A stretch of 64,000 nt of DNA from an uncultured Candidatus Saccharibacteria bacterium (GTDB taxonomy: Bacteria; Patescibacteriota; Saccharimonadia; Saccharimonadales; CAZNVG01). Position numbers and translations under genes: made by a program. The first letter of the stretch is position 1. Every line of letters starts with the position of its first letter. The notes below the pieces were generated by a model. It ran no database searches and had not been told where the DNA came from. It saw only the letters and a program-made list of their open reading frames with translations. The stretch spans positions 8,367-72,366 of the forward strand of contig CAZNVG010000001.1 of assembly GCA_964576475.1 (NCBI GenBank), given 5' to 3'. Positions 7,506 to 38,560 of this stretch are shown here, piece by piece.

Positions 7506-8552
7506 ATGAGTAATATGAACTATTCGAATCCACGCATTGCTGAAGTTGCCGCTATGCTTTTCAAGCGACTAGAGGAGACAGAAGACAAATCTTCTATCCT
7601 ACGAGCTACCGAATTACATGCTCTCTACGCAGAGATACCTACGCTTGCACAGGAAAAACGTGGTGCGTTTGGCAAAGAACTCAACATGCTCAAGACCGAA
7701 TTAACTGAAAAGGTAGCTGCGCATGCAGATGCTGCAGTTGTGCGTACACCAATCGATGTTACTGCACCTTATGACGAAAACATCACACCAAAACAACGAC
7801 CAACATTACTTGGTCCGTCAAAAGGCAGCAAACACCCTCTAATGGCCGAATTAGAGATAGTGCTCGATATATTTTCACGAATGGGCTTTGACACTATTGA
7901 AAGCCGGCAGATAGATGATGAGTATCATATGTTTGATAGTCTCAACTTTCCTGCAGAACACCCTGCTCGCGACGACTATGACACTTTCATGACGACCGAT
8001 GGATTCATTGCGCCAGCACATGCCAGCATTATGCAGAATCGCATCCTAAAAGATGGAGCTTCGTCTTTAGACAAAGGCAATGAAATAAGTGCCGTCTACG
8101 CAGGTAGAACTTTTCGCAATGAAGATGTCGATGCGCGTCATGAGCACACCTTTTATCAGGTGGAAATAATGCACGTCGGTAAGTCAGTTACAGCCGGTAA
8201 TCTCATCGCAACGTTCAAAACGTTTCTCGAGGAGTATTACGCACAAGAATTAGAAGTAAAATCACAGCCGTACTACTTTCCTTTCACTGAACCGAGTTTT
8301 GAGCTGGCGCTCAGTTGTCCGTTCTGCAAGAAGGCAGGCTGCCATGTTTGTAGCTACTCTGGTTGGATTGAATTGCTTGGTATGGGTCTTGTTCATCCGA
8401 ATGTGCTTCGTCAAGGCGGTATCGATCCTGATACATACACTGGTTTCGCAGGTGGATTGGGGCTTGATAGACTCGTCATGATGAAATACGGCATCGAAGA
8501 TGTTCGCCTCTTCCACAGCGGTAAACTTGAGTTTTTGAGGCAATTCTCATGA
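7506..8552 (+). CDS. pheS: phenylalanine--tRNA ligase alpha subunit
   Basis: Class II aaRS motifs (FRNEDVDARHEHTFYQVE, GFAGGLGLDRLVMMKYGI). Confidence 0.9.
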   Translation: MSNMNYSNPRIAEVAAMLFKRLEETEDKSSILRATELHALYAEIPTLAQEKRGAFGKELNMLKTELTEKVAAHADAAVVRTPIDVTAPYDENITPKQRPTLLGPSKGSKHPLMAELEIVLDIFSRMGFDTIESRQIDDEYHMFDSLNFPAEHPARDDYDTFMTTDGFIAPAHASIMQNRILKDGASSLDKGNEISAVYAGRTFRNEDVDARHEHTFYQVEIMHVGKSVTAGNLIATFKTFLEEYYAQELEVKSQPYYFPFTEPSFELALSCPFCKKAGCHVCSYSGWIELLGMGLVHPNVLRQGGIDPDTYTGFAGGLGLDRLVMMKYGIEDVRLFHSGKLEFLRQFS

Positions 8553-8881
8553 GCCAAGTAGTAACATTGACTAGGCTTCAAGAAAGCGCGTATGAAGTTG
8601 CGTCGTTGTATCGTCGTGCTGGTGGTATAAAAGGATATACAACATGGACGAGCCGAGACTACGCTCAAGGTTTCAGCAAGGATGTTGGAGACCTCCAAAA
8701 CATTCTGATGGCAAGAGAAAAACTTCGCGATGGTGACGGTAGTGATGAGACGCTCGCACATGAGCTAAGCGACTGCTTGTATTCAATACTTGTGATCGCC
8801 AAGACAGAAGGAATTGACCTTCAAACCGCATTTATGCAGAACATGAACATGTTGAAATCAAAGATTGAGGAGCAACTATGA
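8549..8881 (+). CDS. MazG-like nucleoside triphosphate pyrophosphohydrolase domain protein
   Basis: LAHELSDCLYSILVIAKTEGIDLQTAF resembles the MazG/NTP-PPase helix pair. Overlaps the pheS stop and the pheT start. Confidence 0.5.
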   Translation: MSQVVTLTRLQESAYEVASLYRRAGGIKGYTTWTSRDYAQGFSKDVGDLQNILMAREKLRDGDGSDETLAHELSDCLYSILVIAKTEGIDLQTAFMQNMNMLKSKIEEQL

Positions 8882-11403
8882 AAATATCGCTCCAATGGGC
8901 ACAGTACTTTAGCAATGTAGACCTCCGTACAATTTCGGATGAACTGCTGGTTTCCAAAATCGGATCGCAAATCGGAGAAGTCGAAGGCGTAGAGGACTGG
9001 GGCAAAAAATACAAAGGTGTTGTCGTCGCGAAAGTGGTGAGCTGCGAACCGCATCCCAACGCTGACAAGCTGCACGTTTGTCGCATAGACGACGGAGGAG
9101 TTGTAGAAGGAGTCGAGCGAGATACTGAAGGTCTGGTGCAAGTGGTTTGTGGAGCGCCAAATGTAACCAAAGACGTACTCGTCGCTTGGCTACCTCCAGG
9201 TGCAACAGTTCCAACTACGTTAGAGAAAGATCCGTTTGTGCTTGAGGCACGCGAATTAAGAGGTGTGGTTAGTAATGGTATGCTTGCAAGCCTGAAGGAG
9301 CTGGGCATTGCTGATGATCATAGCGGCATACTACTCATCGATTCTGAAGAAGTAGGCACAGAGCTTGCCAAACCTGGCACACCGTTTGAGAAGTTATATG
9401 GGCTAGATGACCTCGTTATAGATATTGAAAATAAAATGTTCACCCATAGACCAGATTGTTTTGGCGTGCTTGGTGTTGCTCGAGAAATCGCTGGCATCCA
9501 ATCGTTGTCATTTGAAAGTCCGAAATGGTACACAACGTCTCCTCAATTCGCTACTCCAGACCTACTGCCACTACGCGTCATGAATGAGGCACCTGATAGT
9601 GTGTATCGCTTCATGGCTGTAGCGATGAAGAATGTTCGAATGATACCAAGTCCTATCTGGCTACAAGCGGGATTGACTCGTGTCGGTATACGACCAATTA
9701 ATTATCTCGTAGACTTAACTAACTTCTACATGCATCTTACTGGTCAACCAATGCATGCCTATGACTACGATAAGGTGAAATCGCTTAGCGGTGAGAACGC
9801 AACGCTCGTAGCACGAGAGGCAACCAAGTCAGAGAAACTTACCTTGTTGAGTGGCAAGGAAGTACTCATCGATGCACCAAGCCTTGTGATTGCCACCGAC
9901 AAAGAAGCAATAGGATTAGCTGGGGTAATGGGCGGTGCAAATACTGAAGTGGATGAGACAACAACGAACATCATCCTAGAGTGCGCATCATTTGATATGT
10001 ATTCTATCCGACGCACTGCAATGAAATATGGGTTATTTACGGACGCAGTCACACGTTTCACTAAGGGGCAAAGCCCGTTGCAAAACGACTACATACTTGC
10101 CAAAATCATGGACGACATCATACAGAACACGGGTGCTGAGCAAGCAAGTGTCGTCTACGATCTGCATAATGAACTACCATCGTCGCCTGCTGTTACTGTT
10201 AGTACAGAGTTCATCAATGATCGCTTGGGCAGCGAACTATCAAGTGAACAGATGGCGAAACTTCTACAAAACGTAGAATTTAGTGTAGCCACAAATGATG
10301 CTGAAGGCTTGAGTGTTACTGCACCGTTCTGGCGAACTGATATTGAGCAGCCAGAAGATATAGTAGAAGAGGTTGGTCGACTCTATGGGTATGACAATCT
10401 ACCCATCCAGCTGCCAACTCGATCGTCATCACCTTCTCGACAAAGTACGATACTGTCATTGAAATCGCGCATACGATCCGCGCTAACAAGCGCCGGTGCC
10501 AATGAAGTGCTGACTTACAGTTTTGTGCACGGAGATTTGCTAGAAAAAGTATCACAGCCTGTTGACCAGGCATACAAGCTCACTAATGCGATTAGCCCTG
10601 ATCTACAATATTTCCGACTGAGTATTATTCCTAGCTTACTAGACAAGGTGTACATGAACGTACGCGCAGGATTTGACGAGTTTGGGATATTTGAACTGAA
10701 CAAAAGCCACGTGAAGCAGCATGGACTTGATGAGTTGCAGGTGCCGAAAGAAATAGAAGCCACAGCTTTCGTATTTGCTGCCAGTGACAAACATGCCAAG
10801 CAGTTGTCTGGATCAGCCTTTTACTATGCACGTGCATACTTAGATGAAATGGCACGACAGCTAGGCTTAAAGCTTGTCTACGACGTGATAAACGAAGAGT
10901 CAGCATATCCTGTAGCCCAGCCTTTCGACCAAACACGATCAGCAATGGTGAGAGACAGTAGAACGGGGACTGTCCTCGGTATGATTGGTGAGTTTAAGCA
11001 GTCGACTCTCAGAAGCTTGAAGCTACCTAAGTTTACAGCAGGATTTGAACTCGGTACCGATTTGTTACTTGGCTGCGTTGAGGATCATGTTGAATACATA
11101 CCGTTGTCTAAATTTCCGTCAACTGAACAAGACATCTGCCTCCAAGTAGATTCGAGCACTACGTATGCAGCGCTACAAGGCTGCATCTTAGATGCATTAG
11201 CGTTCATTGCAAAGGAGAAGCAATATCGCTTTGTGCTTACTCCTGTTGATGTCTATAGAGCCGAGGCTAGATCACAAAAGAACATTACTTTTAGAATTAC
11301 CTTGTCTCATCCTGAGCGTACTTTGGTCACCCGAGAGATAAACGAGTTGCTTGAGCATATTTCTACTGAAGCGCACGATAAACTTGCAGCGACTCGACAG
11401 TAG
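8878..11403 (+). CDS. pheT: phenylalanine--tRNA ligase beta subunit
   Basis: 841 aa with an N-terminal tRNA-binding domain followed by B3/4 and B5 domains. Immediately follows pheS. Confidence 0.9.
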   Translation: MKISLQWAQYFSNVDLRTISDELLVSKIGSQIGEVEGVEDWGKKYKGVVVAKVVSCEPHPNADKLHVCRIDDGGVVEGVERDTEGLVQVVCGAPNVTKDVLVAWLPPGATVPTTLEKDPFVLEARELRGVVSNGMLASLKELGIADDHSGILLIDSEEVGTELAKPGTPFEKLYGLDDLVIDIENKMFTHRPDCFGVLGVAREIAGIQSLSFESPKWYTTSPQFATPDLLPLRVMNEAPDSVYRFMAVAMKNVRMIPSPIWLQAGLTRVGIRPINYLVDLTNFYMHLTGQPMHAYDYDKVKSLSGENATLVAREATKSEKLTLLSGKEVLIDAPSLVIATDKEAIGLAGVMGGANTEVDETTTNIILECASFDMYSIRRTAMKYGLFTDAVTRFTKGQSPLQNDYILAKIMDDIIQNTGAEQASVVYDLHNELPSSPAVTVSTEFINDRLGSELSSEQMAKLLQNVEFSVATNDAEGLSVTAPFWRTDIEQPEDIVEEVGRLYGYDNLPIQLPTRSSSPSRQSTILSLKSRIRSALTSAGANEVLTYSFVHGDLLEKVSQPVDQAYKLTNAISPDLQYFRLSIIPSLLDKVYMNVRAGFDEFGIFELNKSHVKQHGLDELQVPKEIEATAFVFAASDKHAKQLSGSAFYYARAYLDEMARQLGLKLVYDVINEESAYPVAQPFDQTRSAMVRDSRTGTVLGMIGEFKQSTLRSLKLPKFTAGFELGTDLLLGCVEDHVEYIPLSKFPSTEQDICLQVDSSTTYAALQGCILDALAFIAKEKQYRFVLTPVDVYRAEARSQKNITFRITLSHPERTLVTREINELLEHISTEAHDKLAATRQ

Positions 11404-11411
11404 ATATTTAC

Positions 11412-11442
11412 TTGTAATTTTTTAATTAAAGTGGCATAATCC
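11412..11442 (+). promoter_or_regulatory. sigma70-like promoter with extended -10 (TTGTAA, 17-nt spacer, TGgCATAAT)
   Basis: Near-consensus hexamers with 17-bp spacing. A perfect hairpin GCTCGC-TTTG-GCGAGC lies just downstream. Confidence 0.4.
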
Positions 11443-11560
11443 TTCAAGCTCGCTTTGCGAGCGAACCTTAACAGGCGTGGTACACCACCGGACAATCTGG
11501 ATGGCTCTTTTAGGTATATATGATTTTCTATATCTAAATGAGTTATTCAGAAATGTCCTA

Positions 11561-11628
11561 GGGGGCGCGAGGCAGGTAGTTGGGGGTTATAGCCTAAACT
11601 ACGCAGGGTTCGAATCCCGCCGTCTCCA
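11561..11628 (+). ncRNA. tRNA-like element: GGGGGCG 5' strand pairs with CGUCUCC 3' strand (2 G.U pairs), T-loop GGTTCGAATCC, discriminator A, internal 6-bp hairpin GTAGTT/AACTAC. Not a canonical cloverleaf
   Basis: Seen directly in the sequence. It is only 68 nt, has no D-arm or anticodon-arm solution, and the T-stem has mismatches. It could be a degenerate tRNA or tmRNA 3' fragment, or an att-site remnant. Confidence 0.3.
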
Positions 11629-11776
11629 CTGGGTTAGCTAGCATATGGACTTTCACTAGTTCCTCAAATGCGAAAAGCGACGGATAAGCAACGCCGTTGC
11701 CTGCTAACCCGCCAATCGTTCGTTTCCATCGATGACCATCAGGTTATCCAGAGCACCACCGAGAGGGGGTGATTGA

Positions 11777-11923
11777 ATGGGTAAGTTCACGGGGACCAGC
11801 AAGCCTTCCGGGGCGGTCAACAACGTGCGGGTCACCTGCGGCAACTGTCGGAACACTTACTATGTGAACCCAAATCTCGCAAGGAGAATGGGGGGATCCA
11901 GGTGTCCGAAGTGCGGCAAGTAG
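11777..11923 (+). CDS. 48-aa zinc-ribbon miniprotein (MGKFTGTSKPSGAVNNVRVTCGNCRNTYYVNPNLARRMGGSRCPKCGK)
   Basis: SD GAGGGGGTGA 6 nt upstream of the ATG. Two CxxC pairs. Lies in a visibly GC-rich segment and is below the ORF-track size cutoff. Confidence 0.4.
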   Translation: MGKFTGTSKPSGAVNNVRVTCGNCRNTYYVNPNLARRMGGSRCPKCGK

Positions 11924-11930
11924 CCCACCC

Positions 11931-12368
11931 ATGGAAACGAACAGTTCTCTTACCAGAGAAATTGACGAAGGCTTAACATGCCATCATCAATCGCGTACCA
12001 CGCCTGTTAGTTTCCAAGTTATGAAAAGTCAAGAACTACACACGATTATTAAAGAACGAGTAGCCGCTGGCGAGAGTCGAGCGGTACTACGATTTATCCA
12101 ACAGAATGAAAGTGCCGAAACGCTTATACCCGAATGTCCTGGCTGTGATCAAAAGATTAAATATCGCGCTGAATCAACAGCAAAGCGCATGGGCGAGGCA
12201 GTCGTAAAGGTGGTTTGCAATATATACGAAGATGGCAGATGGAATCGCGAAGAAGATTGGCACGACACTTGCTACCATGACGCGGGCGATCCATACGGCG
12301 AAGTACTAGATGGAAGAGAAGCAGGACGAGCCACTCAGCGCAGCAAGAGCGAAGCCGCAATTGAGTAG
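11931..12368 (+). CDS. hypothetical Cys/His-containing protein (CPGC...C..C.H), start uncertain (alternative ATG at 12021)
   Basis: ORF with a possible zinc-binding motif ECPGCDQ...CNIYEDGRWNREEDWHDTCYH. No SD at either candidate start. Confidence 0.35.
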   Translation: METNSSLTREIDEGLTCHHQSRTTPVSFQVMKSQELHTIIKERVAAGESRAVLRFIQQNESAETLIPECPGCDQKIKYRAESTAKRMGEAVVKVVCNIYEDGRWNREEDWHDTCYHDAGDPYGEVLDGREAGRATQRSKSEAAIE

Positions 12369-36900: not shown

Positions 36901-37541
36901 AACGTTTCTTGCAAGAAATGGCGGTACCGATGAATAAACTAGAAGCAAACATGGACAACAAGACAGCGACCATAGGCGGACTCGTCACTACAATCCGTGA
37001 AATTGTTACGAAAAATGGGCAGAAAATGGCATTTGTAGGAATGGCTGACTTAATGGGCGAGCTGGAAGTAATTATATTTCCAAGCATTTACACAGAACAA
37101 CCCGAGTTATGGGTTAAGGACAAAGTGCTACTCGTCAAAGGTAAGCTCAATGCAAAAGATCGAGACGGCAGGATGACAAGTGAAGTCAAGTTATTGGCAG
37201 CTGAAGCAAGCGAGATTACTACTGATGTCTTAGCGGCGTTTCGGCCAACCGGTAAAACAGCGAAACTTCCTAAAGCTAAAAAAGAAAGCGACACCAGCAC
37301 TCCAGAGACACCTTCGCACAGCACACTCTATATGCAAATAGAGTCTGCAAACGACCAAGACAAACTTGCGTCCATAAAGTCTCTCTTGGAATCACACCCG
37401 GGAACACAGAAAGCAGTGCTCGTAATTGGTAAAGAACTCAATAAAAGAGCAATTAGATTACCGTTCGGAGTTAGCATCTCACCCAAAATCAAAGAAGAAC
37501 TTGAAGCACTACTAGGCAAAGATTGCGTTGCTCTGCGCTAG
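33945..37541 (+). CDS. dnaE: DNA polymerase III alpha subunit
   Basis: PHP domain (HLHNHTHHSLLDG), polymerase core, OB fold. 1198 aa. GTG start. Confidence 0.9.
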   Translation: MQKKLTAKDYVHLHNHTHHSLLDGLQKIPAMVERAKELGMESIAITDHGTLSGAIEFYKEATAQGIKPIIGIETYVASRSHTDKDPTKDKGRFHLILLAMNNTGYENLMRLSTIANLDGFYHKPRIDHELLEKYNEGLICLSGCIGGEIGDAYRSGRDKDAEQIASWYKSIFGDRYYFEVQDHGHSWQEQKVVNEKLLALSKKLDIPAVVTCDAHYLTHEDQEAHEILLCVQTGSFLSDQDRMSLKDTDLYLTDPKDVIERWGDNPEVISNTKAIADRCHIDIEIGKILIPKFEVPEGETEKTFLIKNVYQGLAWRYGDMTESEAEQLTIEQAKQMLPNEVLSRVEFELGVIDTMGFCGYFLIVSDFIQWGKDQGIVFGPGRGSAAGSIVAYSLKITDLDPIKYDLLFERFLNPDRISMPDIDIDIQDTRRDEVIQYCVHKYGQERVANIVTFGTMAARNAIRDVARVLQVPYADADHLAKLVPPPVQGRHIPLKKSIQDDPDLKSEYDNNEQSRRVMDLAVKMEGTIRSHGVHAAGVVIAPAELVRYAPLEMAQKGVVTTQYSMGIIEDLGLLKMDFLGLSNLTIIKNALRIIKRVHNEDVDINTLPLDDVPTFELLGRGDTTGVFQFESSGMKRYLRELKPTVFDDIIAMGALYRPGPLTAGLTQKFIDRKNGREPVTFEHEKMKNALGNTYGVLVFQEQVMQIAKDMSGFTGGQADTLRKAIGKKKRDVMDKMKQDFVNGAAEHSGVKKQVVEKFWKDLEGFADYAFNKSHAACYALISYWTAYLKAHYPAAFMAALMTSDYDDTDRLAIEISECKNMGLTVLAPDINQSFAEFAVVPDTNQIRFGLSAIKNVGVGAVEMIVKERDGGGEFKTIEDFVKRVSTRTVNRKVWESLVKSGAFDRFGDRGDILYSLDDILGFGAKYQKDTASGQTDLFGGLAGQIIETSHLALKRNPTPVEEKEWLQWERELLGIYLSSHPLEPYERFLQEMAVPMNKLEANMDNKTATIGGLVTTIREIVTKNGQKMAFVGMADLMGELEVIIFPSIYTEQPELWVKDKVLLVKGKLNAKDRDGRMTSEVKLLAAEASEITTDVLAAFRPTGKTAKLPKAKKESDTSTPETPSHSTLYMQIESANDQDKLASIKSLLESHPGTQKAVLVIGKELNKRAIRLPFGVSISPKIKEELEALLGKDCVALR

Positions 37542-38560
37542 AGTATTGTGCCGCTCGTGCCGGCAAACAATAGTATCATTGCTATGCTCAGTAGACTTAC
37601 CTCAACCGCAGGGTGTGTCAGTACAAACTCTTCACCTTCCACGAGTGCGCGCTTAAGTCTCATTGTGTGCTTGGCAGCAAACCATACGCTTCCTAGTGAC
37701 AGTGCGATAAAAGAGACGTAGATACTTAGCCCTGCCGAGCCTGACATGAGTCTGCTAAATCGAGAGGCCGATTTACTCGTGGGCTGATCTGAAGCAAGCC
37801 TGAGGCTCGTAAACGGCTTCTCTTCTTCTGGTTCCGCGGGTGGTTCTATGGGTGTTTCTGGTGCGGGTGTTGGCGTAGGAGTGGGTGCGGGAGTGGGTGC
37901 GGGGGTTGGTGCGGGAGTGGGTGCGGGGGTTGGTGCAGGAGGTGATGGCTTTATTGAGCTTGGCGGGGTTGGTGCAGGGGTTGGTGCAGGGGTTGGTGCA
38001 GGGGTTGGTGCAGGGGTTGGTGCAGGCTGACCATACATCGCGACAACAACTGTGTTTTGACCTCCTTGAAAGTTTGCTCCATTTGCAATACCGAAACCTA
38101 CGTCTACATAGGCCGCATCAAGCACGTTAGCGCGATGAGTCGCACTATTCATCCAACCAGTCACGACGGCGCTACTATTATCAAATCCATACGCCAGATT
38201 CTCCCCAGCCTTATAGTATGAGTATCCTGCGTTCGTTATGAAAACCCACGGTGGATTTCCTTCAGGTGTATTGTGGCTCCAATAGTTACGGGCGATCATG
38301 TCATTCGCCTTAGCTTGTGCGGCACTCGTAAGCTTACTATTTAGATTCAATGAAGGAAGGCCGTTTTGTGAACGCTGCCCATTCTGAGATGACTGTAGTC
38401 CATCAACTGAAATATTAGTAGCATATGCGAGCACATGCGTGCGCTGAGGTACATGCGCTGCTAGCTGGGCAATTATTGATACGCTGAGCAGTGCTATAAC
38501 ACCATACCGTGCTATGAATGACTGATGACGTTTTGCTTTGTGTTGTTTATTTTTGGGCAT
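37538..38560 (-). CDS. CAP (SCP/PR-1-like) domain protein with Pro-Thr-Ala repeat linker and C-terminal TM anchor
   Basis: CAP core NYWSHNTPEGNPPW...GENLAYGF...ATHRANVLD. Linker (PAPTPAPT)n. N-terminal signal/TM and C-terminal hydrophobic anchor. Confidence 0.6.
   Translation of the reverse strand: MPKNKQHKAKRHQSFIARYGVIALLSVSIIAQLAAHVPQRTHVLAYATNISVDGLQSSQNGQRSQNGLPSLNLNSKLTSAAQAKANDMIARNYWSHNTPEGNPPWVFITNAGYSYYKAGENLAYGFDNSSAVVTGWMNSATHRANVLDAAYVDVGFGIANGANFQGGQNTVVVAMYGQPAPTPAPTPAPTPAPTPAPTPPSSIKPSPPAPTPAPTPAPTPAPTPAPTPTPTPAPETPIEPPAEPEEEKPFTSLRLASDQPTSKSASRFSRLMSGSAGLSIYVSFIALSLGSVWFAAKHTMRLKRALVEGEEFVLTHPAVEVSLLSIAMILLFAGTSGTIL
37855..38030. repeat. tandem 12/24-nt repeats (GGGGTTGGTGCA and GGGAGTGGGTGCGGGGGTTGGTGC units) encoding the PT-repeat linker
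   Basis: Seen directly. On the + strand these are spurious GVGAG ORFs; on the coding strand they give PAPTPAPT. Confidence 0.7.

Follow-up and report, generated by a model that had tools for sequence, protein, structure and literature searches.

What is a tRNA-like segment without an anticodon doing upstream of a small-protein gene in the chromosome of a Saccharibacterium? The segment is 68 nt long and lies downstream of pheT in an ordinary chromosomal stretch of 64,000 nt, hereafter the window, from an uncultured Candidatus Saccharibacteria bacterium (TM7, Patescibacteria; assembly GCA_964576475.1, contig CAZNVG010000001.1). It forms a cassette with the genes of a 48-aa zinc-ribbon protein, zr48, and of an orphan 115-aa protein, p115, between pheT and an ABC exporter gene. 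Judged by its sequence, the 68-nt element is real and unusual: a complete tRNA-like domain (TLD) of the kind found in transfer-messenger RNA (tmRNA), with the identity set for alanine, and neither a decoding tRNA nor a full tmRNA. The preferred reading, to which we give a probability of about 0.4, is that of a transcribed module that may be cut by tRNA-maturation enzymes from the leader of an acquired small-protein cassette, so that a mini RNA of alanine type and a processed mRNA of zr48 result.

Unconstrained minimum-energy folding of the 68-mer returned exactly an acceptor stem, a linker, one long hairpin, a T-arm and a discriminator A. There is neither a D-arm nor an anticodon; one hairpin replaces the anticodon arm. 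A preliminary description of this DNA had recognised the 7-bp acceptor-like stem, the canonical T-loop and the discriminator A, and sequence and fold bear this out. The single hairpin that it had seen instead of the D and anticodon arms is also there, but not as a plain 6-bp stem: six base pairs are followed by a mismatch and by 3-4 bp closing a small loop. ARAGORN in tRNA and tmRNA mode, permuted forms included, called 0 genes in the 64-kb window, and Rfam had no match in it at gathering thresholds. The tRNA model RF00005 gave no match in a 1-kb search even at E values up to 10. A normal or permuted tRNA or tmRNA is ruled out by the negative ARAGORN and Rfam gathering searches, in line with the earlier view that the segment is not a functional tRNA. 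Reading of the downstream sequence gave no plausible tag frame.

At permissive thresholds, the tmRNA model RF00023 matched the element from model position 1 to 374 via the termini only, with the pairs intact; 31 nt stand for 326 internal model positions. The score was 24.8 bits (gathering score 47), with an E value of 6.7e-8 in the 1-kb search, or about 4e-6 when scaled to the whole window. The 3′ 23 nt of the element are identical to the 3′ ends of genuine tmRNAs. Both results substantiate the likeness to the tmRNA tRNA-like domain that had been proposed. The T-loop motif GG.TC[GA]A.[TC]CC occurs once in the 64 kb, in this element.

A chance resemblance would require a GC-rich stretch with a T-loop-like motif and a complementary end. 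The 68-mer folds no better than its shuffles (z -0.66), and Rfam scores it below the gathering threshold. The fold energy is ordinary for a GC-rich composition, so the statistical weight of the element rests on the covariance-model match, with the E values given above. Chance would also have to produce the 23-nt identity to real tmRNA 3′ ends. The 5′ acceptor strand is unlikely to be accidental, because the expectation for a 7-nt 5′ complement in the right 30-nt interval, calculated from base frequencies, is about 0.015. An independent covariance model was built from six mini elements of viral contigs (see below), with the window element left out. The element was its only match in the window, at 31.9 bits, within the range of held-out minis. 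This model is not class-specific; it also matches ordinary tRNA-Ala genes at 33-42 bits. Chance is very unlikely, close to negligible.

With tmRNA (ssrA, RF00023), the element shares the 7-bp acceptor stem starting with GGGG, the G3:U70 pair, the discriminator A and the T-arm GGUUCGAAUCC. In both, an anticodon is absent, a helix replaces the anticodon arm and a GG-containing single strand replaces the D-arm. Unlike tmRNA, the element has 68 nt instead of ~350 and lacks a resume codon, tag frame and pseudoknots. Its D-loop analogue is only 8 nt long, it stays below the gathering score and is uncalled by ARAGORN, and it sits within the leader of a protein-coding cassette. A tblastn search with the SmpB of E. 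coli found nothing in the 64-kb window.

The nearest described form is the tmRNA of jakobid mitochondria, which has lost the mRNA-like region (Burger et al. 2013, PMC3590771). The window element and this reduced tmRNA, especially the contiguous form of Jakoba libera, share a tmRNA-type acceptor and T-arm, alanine identity elements and the absence of an mRNA-like region. The jakobid form differs in being organellar and derived from an alpha-proteobacterial two-piece tmRNA, whereas the window element is located in a Saccharibacteria chromosome, off any conserved ssrA locus. Jacob and co-workers are said to have described the reduced jakobid tmRNA in 2004, and aminoacylation of the J. libera form has reportedly been shown. 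To our knowledge, tmRNA is taken to be nearly universal in bacteria and to require both of its halves, and the only accepted TLD-only forms are those of jakobid mitochondria. A further likeness is to mascRNA from MALAT1 (RF01684) and to bacterial tRNA-mRNA co-transcripts: a tRNA-like fold without a cloverleaf is predicted inside a longer RNA, from which excision by RNase P and RNase Z would follow. However, mascRNA is eukaryotic and located at a 3′ end. The RF01684 match of the element is weak (17.6 bits, far below the threshold of 42.5) and is no evidence of homology.

A transcript could start just upstream. The sigma-70-type promoter-like site begins 8 nt past the pheT stop codon and has an extended -10 (TGgCATAAT). 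It had been described as a near-consensus promoter. Site and spacing are present, but its significance did not hold up: it scores 9/12 plus TG, and ~2.7 such sites per 1.8 kb are expected in shuffles. It is plausible, and not significant alone. The perfect hairpin reported downstream of it was confirmed. No terminator-like site was found between 11000 and 12800, and no other plus-strand promoter-like site precedes zr48. With the promoter-like site 120 nt upstream of the element and neither signal in between, co-transcription of element and zr48 is plausible. Since a terminator-like site is absent, the same site may also drive p115 and the ABC exporter gene.

RNase P and the CCA-adding enzyme accept acceptor/T-arm minihelices as substrates, and alanyl-tRNA synthetase (AlaRS) accepts minihelices with G3:U70. 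In the preferred reading, transcription from the promoter-like site at 11412-11440 would produce a ~570-nt, highly structured RNA including zr48. RNase P would cut at 11560/11561, because the coaxial acceptor/T-arm helix is a minimal substrate of tRNA-maturation enzymes. Trimming of the 3′ side after A11628 and CCA addition would follow, and a small stable RNA of ~71 nt would be released. With G3:U70 and A73, this RNA would be recognised and charged by AlaRS. The same cuts would set the 5′ end of a zr48 mRNA with a hairpin-masked ribosome-binding site. Transcription is thus predicted from the site and its surroundings, processing and charging from minimal-substrate biochemistry, and the downstream role might be mRNA punctuation or stabilisation, or an activity of the released RNA.

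The segment 11445-12025 folds far below shuffle energies (z -6.1), and 11629-11776 has a z of -2.1. Rfam miRNA 'hits' in the AT-rich hairpin at 11490-11558 are spurious. A perfect 15-nt inverted repeat encloses this hairpin, the element, the closed two-hairpin domain and zr48, and is the closing helix in the predicted fold. In the 64 kb it is the only inverted repeat of at least 15 nt with a spacing up to 1 kb; 0.05 are expected. An inner 12-nt inverted repeat is not significant alone; its left arm can alternatively pair with the 5′ acceptor strand (predicted).

Such folding would also suit a purely cis-acting leader, in which the 330-nt 5′ untranslated region and the zr48 open reading frame (ORF) are one RNA domain closed by the 15-bp and the inner 12-bp helices, and the tRNA-like shape is an unprocessed sub-domain. 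Control of zr48 translation or stability would come from masking of the Shine-Dalgarno sequence, from RNase III sites within the long helices, or from an alternative partner, 11711-27, for the acceptor 5′ strand. The low fold energy, the nested long-range helices, the masking hairpin and the uniqueness of the 15-nt repeat speak for this explanation, as does the pairing with 11711-27 in a 351-nt fold. Constraint of the ORF at the RNA level would account for the absence of synonymous changes in zr48, and a second locus, on contig L104, has a leader of like layout (both below). But the tmRNA-termini match, G3:U70, A73 and the canonical T-loop are left unexplained, the sole substitution in the closed domain breaks a predicted pair, and no cis-regulatory family of Rfam matches. 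A solely cis-acting leader is unlikely.

The repeat arms are 511 bp apart, with a TA dinucleotide at both outer edges. They could be an RNA closing helix, terminal inverted repeats (TIRs) or an inversion site. As DNA, the segment might be a non-autonomous TIR element (TA-flanked, like an IS630/mariner miniature inverted-repeat transposable element) carrying TLD and zr48 as cargo, or a segment inverted by a recombinase encoded elsewhere. The perfect repeats with their low expectation, the TA edges and the GC-rich, lineage-specific cargo agree with this. Yet the arms have no other copy in the 64 kb, and the flanking TA is palindromic and uninformative on target-site duplication. No transposase or invertase gene is nearby, the orientation is constant in four independent assemblies, the promoter is outside the segment, and the tract of low divergence between sister strains (11334-11950) does not match the repeat boundaries. 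A DNA-level element is improbable. An integron attC or core-site reading of the repeats was rejected, as the sequences do not fit GTTRRRY / RYYYAAC.

Table 1. Features of the cassette downstream of pheT and of the second locus on contig L104. Positions are those of the window, or of L104 where indicated.
Feature	Position	Strand	Description or basis
Promoter-like site, sigma-70 type	11412-11440	+	TTGTAA 11412-17, 17-nt spacer, TG 11432-33, CATAAT 11435-40
Perfect 6-bp hairpin	11448-11462	+	GCTCGC-TTT-GCGAGC; at predicted transcript 5′ end
Left arm of perfect 15-nt inverted repeat	11469-11483	+	TAACAGGCGTGGTAC; pairs with 11995-12009
AT-rich near-perfect hairpin	11490-11558	+	~30 bp; ends 2 nt before the element; -31.6 kcal/mol, z -7.3
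tmRNA-TLD-like mini element	11561-11628	+	Sequence, RF00023 ends-only match, minimum-energy fold
Acceptor stem	11561-67 / 11621-27	+	7 bp, GGGGGCG / CGUCUCC; third pair G3:U70
Linker	11568-75	+	CGAGGCAG; 8 nt, GG-containing
Central long hairpin	11576-11602	+	
T-arm	11603-20	+	GGUUCGAAUCC; one bulged A in T-stem, loop TTCGAAT (UUCGAAU)
Discriminator A	11628	+	Unpaired; CCA not encoded
Closed multi-hairpin domain	11630-11711	+	Helix of type GGGTTAGCT / GGCTAACCC, 11630-38 with 11703-11; encloses two hairpins
Left arm of inner 12-nt inverted repeat	11718-11729	+	GTTCGTTTCCAT; pairs with 11931-11942; encloses zr48 alone
Shine-Dalgarno-masking hairpin (predicted)	11754-11771	+	Pairs CACCACC with zr48 Shine-Dalgarno region GGGGGTG
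zr48, 48-aa CxxC...CxxC zinc-ribbon protein	11777-11923	+	GC 0.58; homologue searches, profile, AlphaFold
Right arm of inner inverted repeat	11931-11942	+	ATGGAAACGAAC
Right arm of perfect 15-nt inverted repeat	11995-12009	+	GTACCACGCCTGTTA
p115, orphan 115-aa protein gene	12021-12368	+	CPGC and further Cys/His; no recognisable Shine-Dalgarno
tRNA-like element on L104	296-377 (L104)		Acceptor stem, D-arm with inserted hairpin, GC tetraloop hairpin replacing anticodon arm, T-arm
Canonical tRNA on L104	380-453 (L104)		Rfam 59.6 bits; rare anticodon AAA, G3:U70, A73, encoded CCA

The cassette stands out from its surroundings. Housekeeping genes of the window include pheS, pheT, dnaE, uvrB, a Clp ATPase, a class A PBP and others, and the mean GC is 0.455 (sd 0.042). 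Among the gaps between long ORFs, 11404-11930 is the largest and the most GC-rich (0.50 vs 0.37-0.43 elsewhere). At the cassette, GC in 150-nt windows rises to 0.60, which is the 99.6th percentile and the second highest peak of the 64 kb. The GC-rich island of the preliminary description is confirmed by this computation, and the downstream DNA is compositionally atypical. By part, GC is 0.62 in the 68-nt element, 0.58 in zr48 and 0.36 in the leader upstream. In the whole window, GC is highest at 37714-37986 (0.67 over 150 nt), within the 3′ part of a gene of the CAP-domain (cysteine-rich secretory protein) family (37538-38560, minus strand); this peak is probably a biased linker or tail.

The best relatives of the window's PheT, in one-genome-per-species GTDB, are metagenome-assembled genomes (MAGs) of Saccharibacteria with at most 53% identity. 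In 24 related pheT loci, all within this identity range and all rearranged downstream of pheT, there was no T-loop motif, no tRNA or tmRNA call and no homologue of zr48 or p115. The content after pheT varied, with FKBP immediately downstream, with tgt or membrane proteins, or with the ABC exporter at a distance of 2-3 kb. With the cassette (element, zr48 and p115) absent from 24/24 loci and the content downstream of pheT varying, the sequence comparison makes the cassette lineage-specific and probably an addition to a variable region. An ancestral ssrA locus downstream of pheT was rejected on the same 0/24 count. A MazG-like ORF of 110 aa between pheS and pheT (8549-8881, overlapping each by 4 nt) occupies this place in just two of the 24 relatives (L004 and L020). 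One related Saccharibacteria MAG (L008) has a SAM riboswitch (RF00162, 49.7 bits) at 9968-10079, ~3.7 kb downstream of pheT and ~1.1 kb upstream of an ABC exporter gene (11169-12260). PheT of an Acidobacteriota-titled MAG (L010, JBLMYZ010000011.1) is ~45% identical to that of the window, like the Saccharibacteria matches; this may be a mis-binned contig.

Could the element be what an integration event left behind? The 3′ ends of tmRNAs are classic integration targets (PMC4131195), and fragments of tRNA and tmRNA genes at the borders of integrated islands are attachment (att) sites (Williams and co-workers; PMC4131195, PMC9897764). Like such fragments, the element sits at a border of lineage-specific, atypical DNA, and in its 3′ part it equals the usual target. 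Unlike them, it folds completely and has a 5′ acceptor strand to match, with neither a direct repeat nor an integrase. The 3′ segment CCCGCCGTCTCCACTG has no other copy in the 64 kb at up to 3 mismatches, and the Pfam-annotated genes within +/-10 kb, as seen on the sister contig, include no recombinase or integrase. The attachment-site remnant or scar envisaged in the preliminary description is therefore not upheld: the element's own 5′ strand (chance ~0.015), the lack of a direct repeat and the lack of a nearby recombinase speak against an integrase having left no more than a 3′ fragment. In viral contigs, the exact 3′ 23-mer was found only in genuine tmRNAs (one of staphylococcal type by its tag sequence) and prophage ends, so that the 3′ end is generic and not diagnostic of origin.

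A broader version holds that a phage or integrative element with a tmRNA- or tRNA-type att site, or with a TLD-only gene and zr48, landed after pheT and later lost its integrase. The tRNA-like piece would then be a fossil in a decaying mobile-element remnant. The absence of the cassette from all 24 relatives and the variability after pheT fit this, as do the GC island, a zr family otherwise found mostly in organisms of 62-70% GC, and the identity of the 3′ 23 nt with tmRNA ends, which are classic integration targets (PMC4131195). Mini TLD elements are present in viral contigs, zr48 and its homologue P0004 show divergence or truncation, and a weak second 'CGTTTCCA' occurs 93 nt downstream (11721-28). 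Against it, the acceptor 5′ strand, linker and hairpin are present though an att fragment needs none of them. The missing direct repeat and recombinase count here as well, no similarity to phage or plasmid records was found, and the segment is the most conserved of a 20-kb comparison while the adjacent p115 diverged normally. A decaying remnant is possible but doubtful.

That comparison is with a sister strain (contigs L025-L027), which carries the whole cassette and is 95.4% identical over 20 kb. The element sequence is identical in L025 and L026. The tract 11334-11950 has 3 substitutions in 617 nt vs a mean of 23 per 500 nt and includes the lowest 500-nt window of the 20-kb alignment. In zr48, there are 0 differences from L025 in 49 codons; ~4.7 synonymous differences are expected (Poisson P ~0.01) at the rate of ~0.095 per codon in the flanking p115 and ABC genes. 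The low divergence reflects either constraint beyond the protein level or a recent recombination tract. Of the three leader substitutions, one at 11508 turns the only internal U.U of the AT-rich long hairpin into A-U, one at 11697 in the closed domain turns a predicted A-U into A.C, and the third is at an unpaired position. With one pair repaired, one broken and one position unpaired, the sister strain gives no covariation support.

The ORF of zr48, preceded by the Shine-Dalgarno sequence GAGAGGGGGTGA, was confirmed as the CxxC...CxxC miniprotein of the preliminary description and belongs to a real family. Exhaustive searching with phmmer gave small homologues (44-54 aa, 42-57% identity, E 4e-8). 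A profile search extended this to 41 clusters of an unnamed family of ~49 aa with the consensus M.YKAT..P.G.VNNVKV.C..CG..LYVNP......GGW.CP.CGKRH. The protein has G12, N15, V19, C21-x2-C24, G40 and C43-P-x-C46, the family pattern for proteins of 44-56 aa. By these sequence features, zr48 is a divergent member of this zinc-ribbon family. Pfam and NCBIfam gave nothing beyond generic zinc-ribbon noise. The AlphaFold (AF2) model is a confident small zinc ribbon (pLDDT 80). A structural search with it had no PDB match below E 0.9 and no informative neighbour, and the structure is too generic to suggest a function. A 62-aa ORF on the reverse strand (11744-11932) overlaps zr48; it is among the called genes of sister contig L025 (9723-9911), most likely as an artefact of the high GC content.

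Most members of the zr48 family are encoded on contigs of 62-70% GC, which fits acquired DNA; at least zr48 was, by this distribution, probably acquired from a high-GC donor. No match for the zr family proteins or the window DNA was found in phage or plasmid collections, and a phage or plasmid origin was rejected on this ground.

The nearest homologue of zr48, P0004, is 55% identical and encoded on contigs of 44% GC (L104-106), ~130 nt downstream of a tRNA-like element and a tRNA separated by 3 nt. The tRNA-like element has no ARAGORN or Rfam call. As in the window, the leader is predicted to have a closed multi-hairpin domain, then a hairpin, then one that masks the Shine-Dalgarno sequence. 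Both low-GC occurrences of the otherwise high-GC zr family are thus just downstream of odd tRNA-like genes. As a conserved pair throughout the family, TLD and zr48 were rejected for the high-GC members; the pairing holds only for this one other low-GC locus.

The second Cys/His-rich ORF of the preliminary description is a real gene, but shorter than the 145 aa assumed. A 1-nt indel at 11951 in the sister strain puts stops into the first 30 codons of that over-extended frame, and the gene starts at 12021. The region 11931-12020 is non-coding; one arm each of the inner and the outer repeat lies in it, together with two small hairpins. From 12021 on, the strains differ in 11 synonymous and 4 non-synonymous codons, with 13 of 17 changes at third positions; this predominance argues for a genuine coding gene. 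The sole homologue among 5.8 billion proteins is the 115-aa protein of the sister strain (97% identity, single cluster). No Pfam, NCBIfam or PHROG match was found. The protein carries one CxxC (CPGC) and scattered Cys and His. The former designation of two zinc-ribbon proteins is not supported, as the second has neither family nor structural evidence for it; a zinc ribbon is shown for zr48 only.

Several observations weigh against the reading as a processed module. The fold energy of the 68-mer is ordinary, and sites like the promoter-like one are frequent in shuffles. The element is absent from the 24 relatives and from a scan of JGI metagenomes, and a signal of long-term selection is missing. 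The next-lowest segments of the 20-kb alignment have 5 and 6 changes per 500 nt, which makes a recombination tract possible. The change at 11697 breaks its pair, and a covariation signal is absent because only near-identical copies exist. The nearly invariant W41 of the family is Ser in zr48, and P0004 is truncated and has lost the second CxxC, both possible signs of decay. Around the family loci on high-GC contigs, neighbours are not conserved and a tRNA-like element upstream is missing. Finally, the leaders of the window and of L104 could not be aligned, so that common descent of the whole module is not demonstrable.

Elements of similar build are present in phage contigs. A pattern scan of IMG/VR (GGGG, short gap, the same T-arm, CTCCA) returned 68 loci. 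Filtering for a fully paired 7-bp acceptor stem left ~13 elements of 54-70 nt, all uncalled by ARAGORN. The architecture of the window element (acceptor, GG-containing linker, hairpin, T-arm) was seen in L041, L045, L068, L072 and L086. Anticodon-arm-less elements of 54-75 nt with a discriminator A, a T-arm and a GGGG.../...CTCC stem occur in these five and in L056, L065 and L076. RF00023 matched seven phage-contig elements end-to-end at 22-32 bits, in L045, L068, L072, L076 and L086, and had no such match for those of L041, L056 and L065. It revealed second copies in L072 (11205-11270 and 10796-10880) and L086 (4449-4523 and 4534-4600), the latter in tandem. The unrelated minis of L041 (2549-2616) and L065 (13581-13650) each adjoin a convergent transposase gene of the IS1595 family (DDE_Tnp_IS1595 and Zn_ribbon_IS1595). 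Others of the filtered set, inside phage tRNA arrays, are tRNA-like genes of 58-61 nt with acceptor, D-arm and T-arm and without an anticodon arm, also uncalled by ARAGORN (L044 1385-1443, L054 5512-5569, L078 676-736). The JGI scan, keyed to the bulged T-arm as a distinctive signature, had a single match, AT-rich, phage-like and unrelated, and no element of the window's kind. A literature search found no published description of such TLD-only mini elements. From their sequences, the minis of phage contigs may be an undescribed class of TLD-only RNAs.

The element could function as one of an unrecognised class of alanine-accepting mini RNAs that consist of a TLD only and would be found in this Saccharibacterium and, single or in tandem, in many phage genomes. 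This extension is distinctly unlikely. If true, maturation by RNase P and CCA addition and charging by AlaRS would be followed by one of three roles. The RNA would enter stalled ribosomes with SmpB, for a tag-less rescue or a competitive block of trans-translation; it would be a non-decoding alanine donor for aminoacyl-transferases; or it would divert tRNA-targeting enzymes as a decoy. At its most extreme, this reading would make it the only tmRNA of the organism. Other Saccharibacteria genomes are presumably annotated with ssrA, which would make the window element accessory.

If the element is only a fossil or a leader sub-domain, it is a curiosity, yet it would document that an episymbiont acquired genes, with a high-GC donor as the probable source. 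As a chromosomal bacterial TLD-only element with uncalled look-alikes in phages, it raises the question of whether alanine-charged, anticodon-less mini RNAs may have a role of their own. A second question is whether such modules may serve as processing punctuation for acquired genes in the reduced genomes of the Candidate Phyla Radiation.

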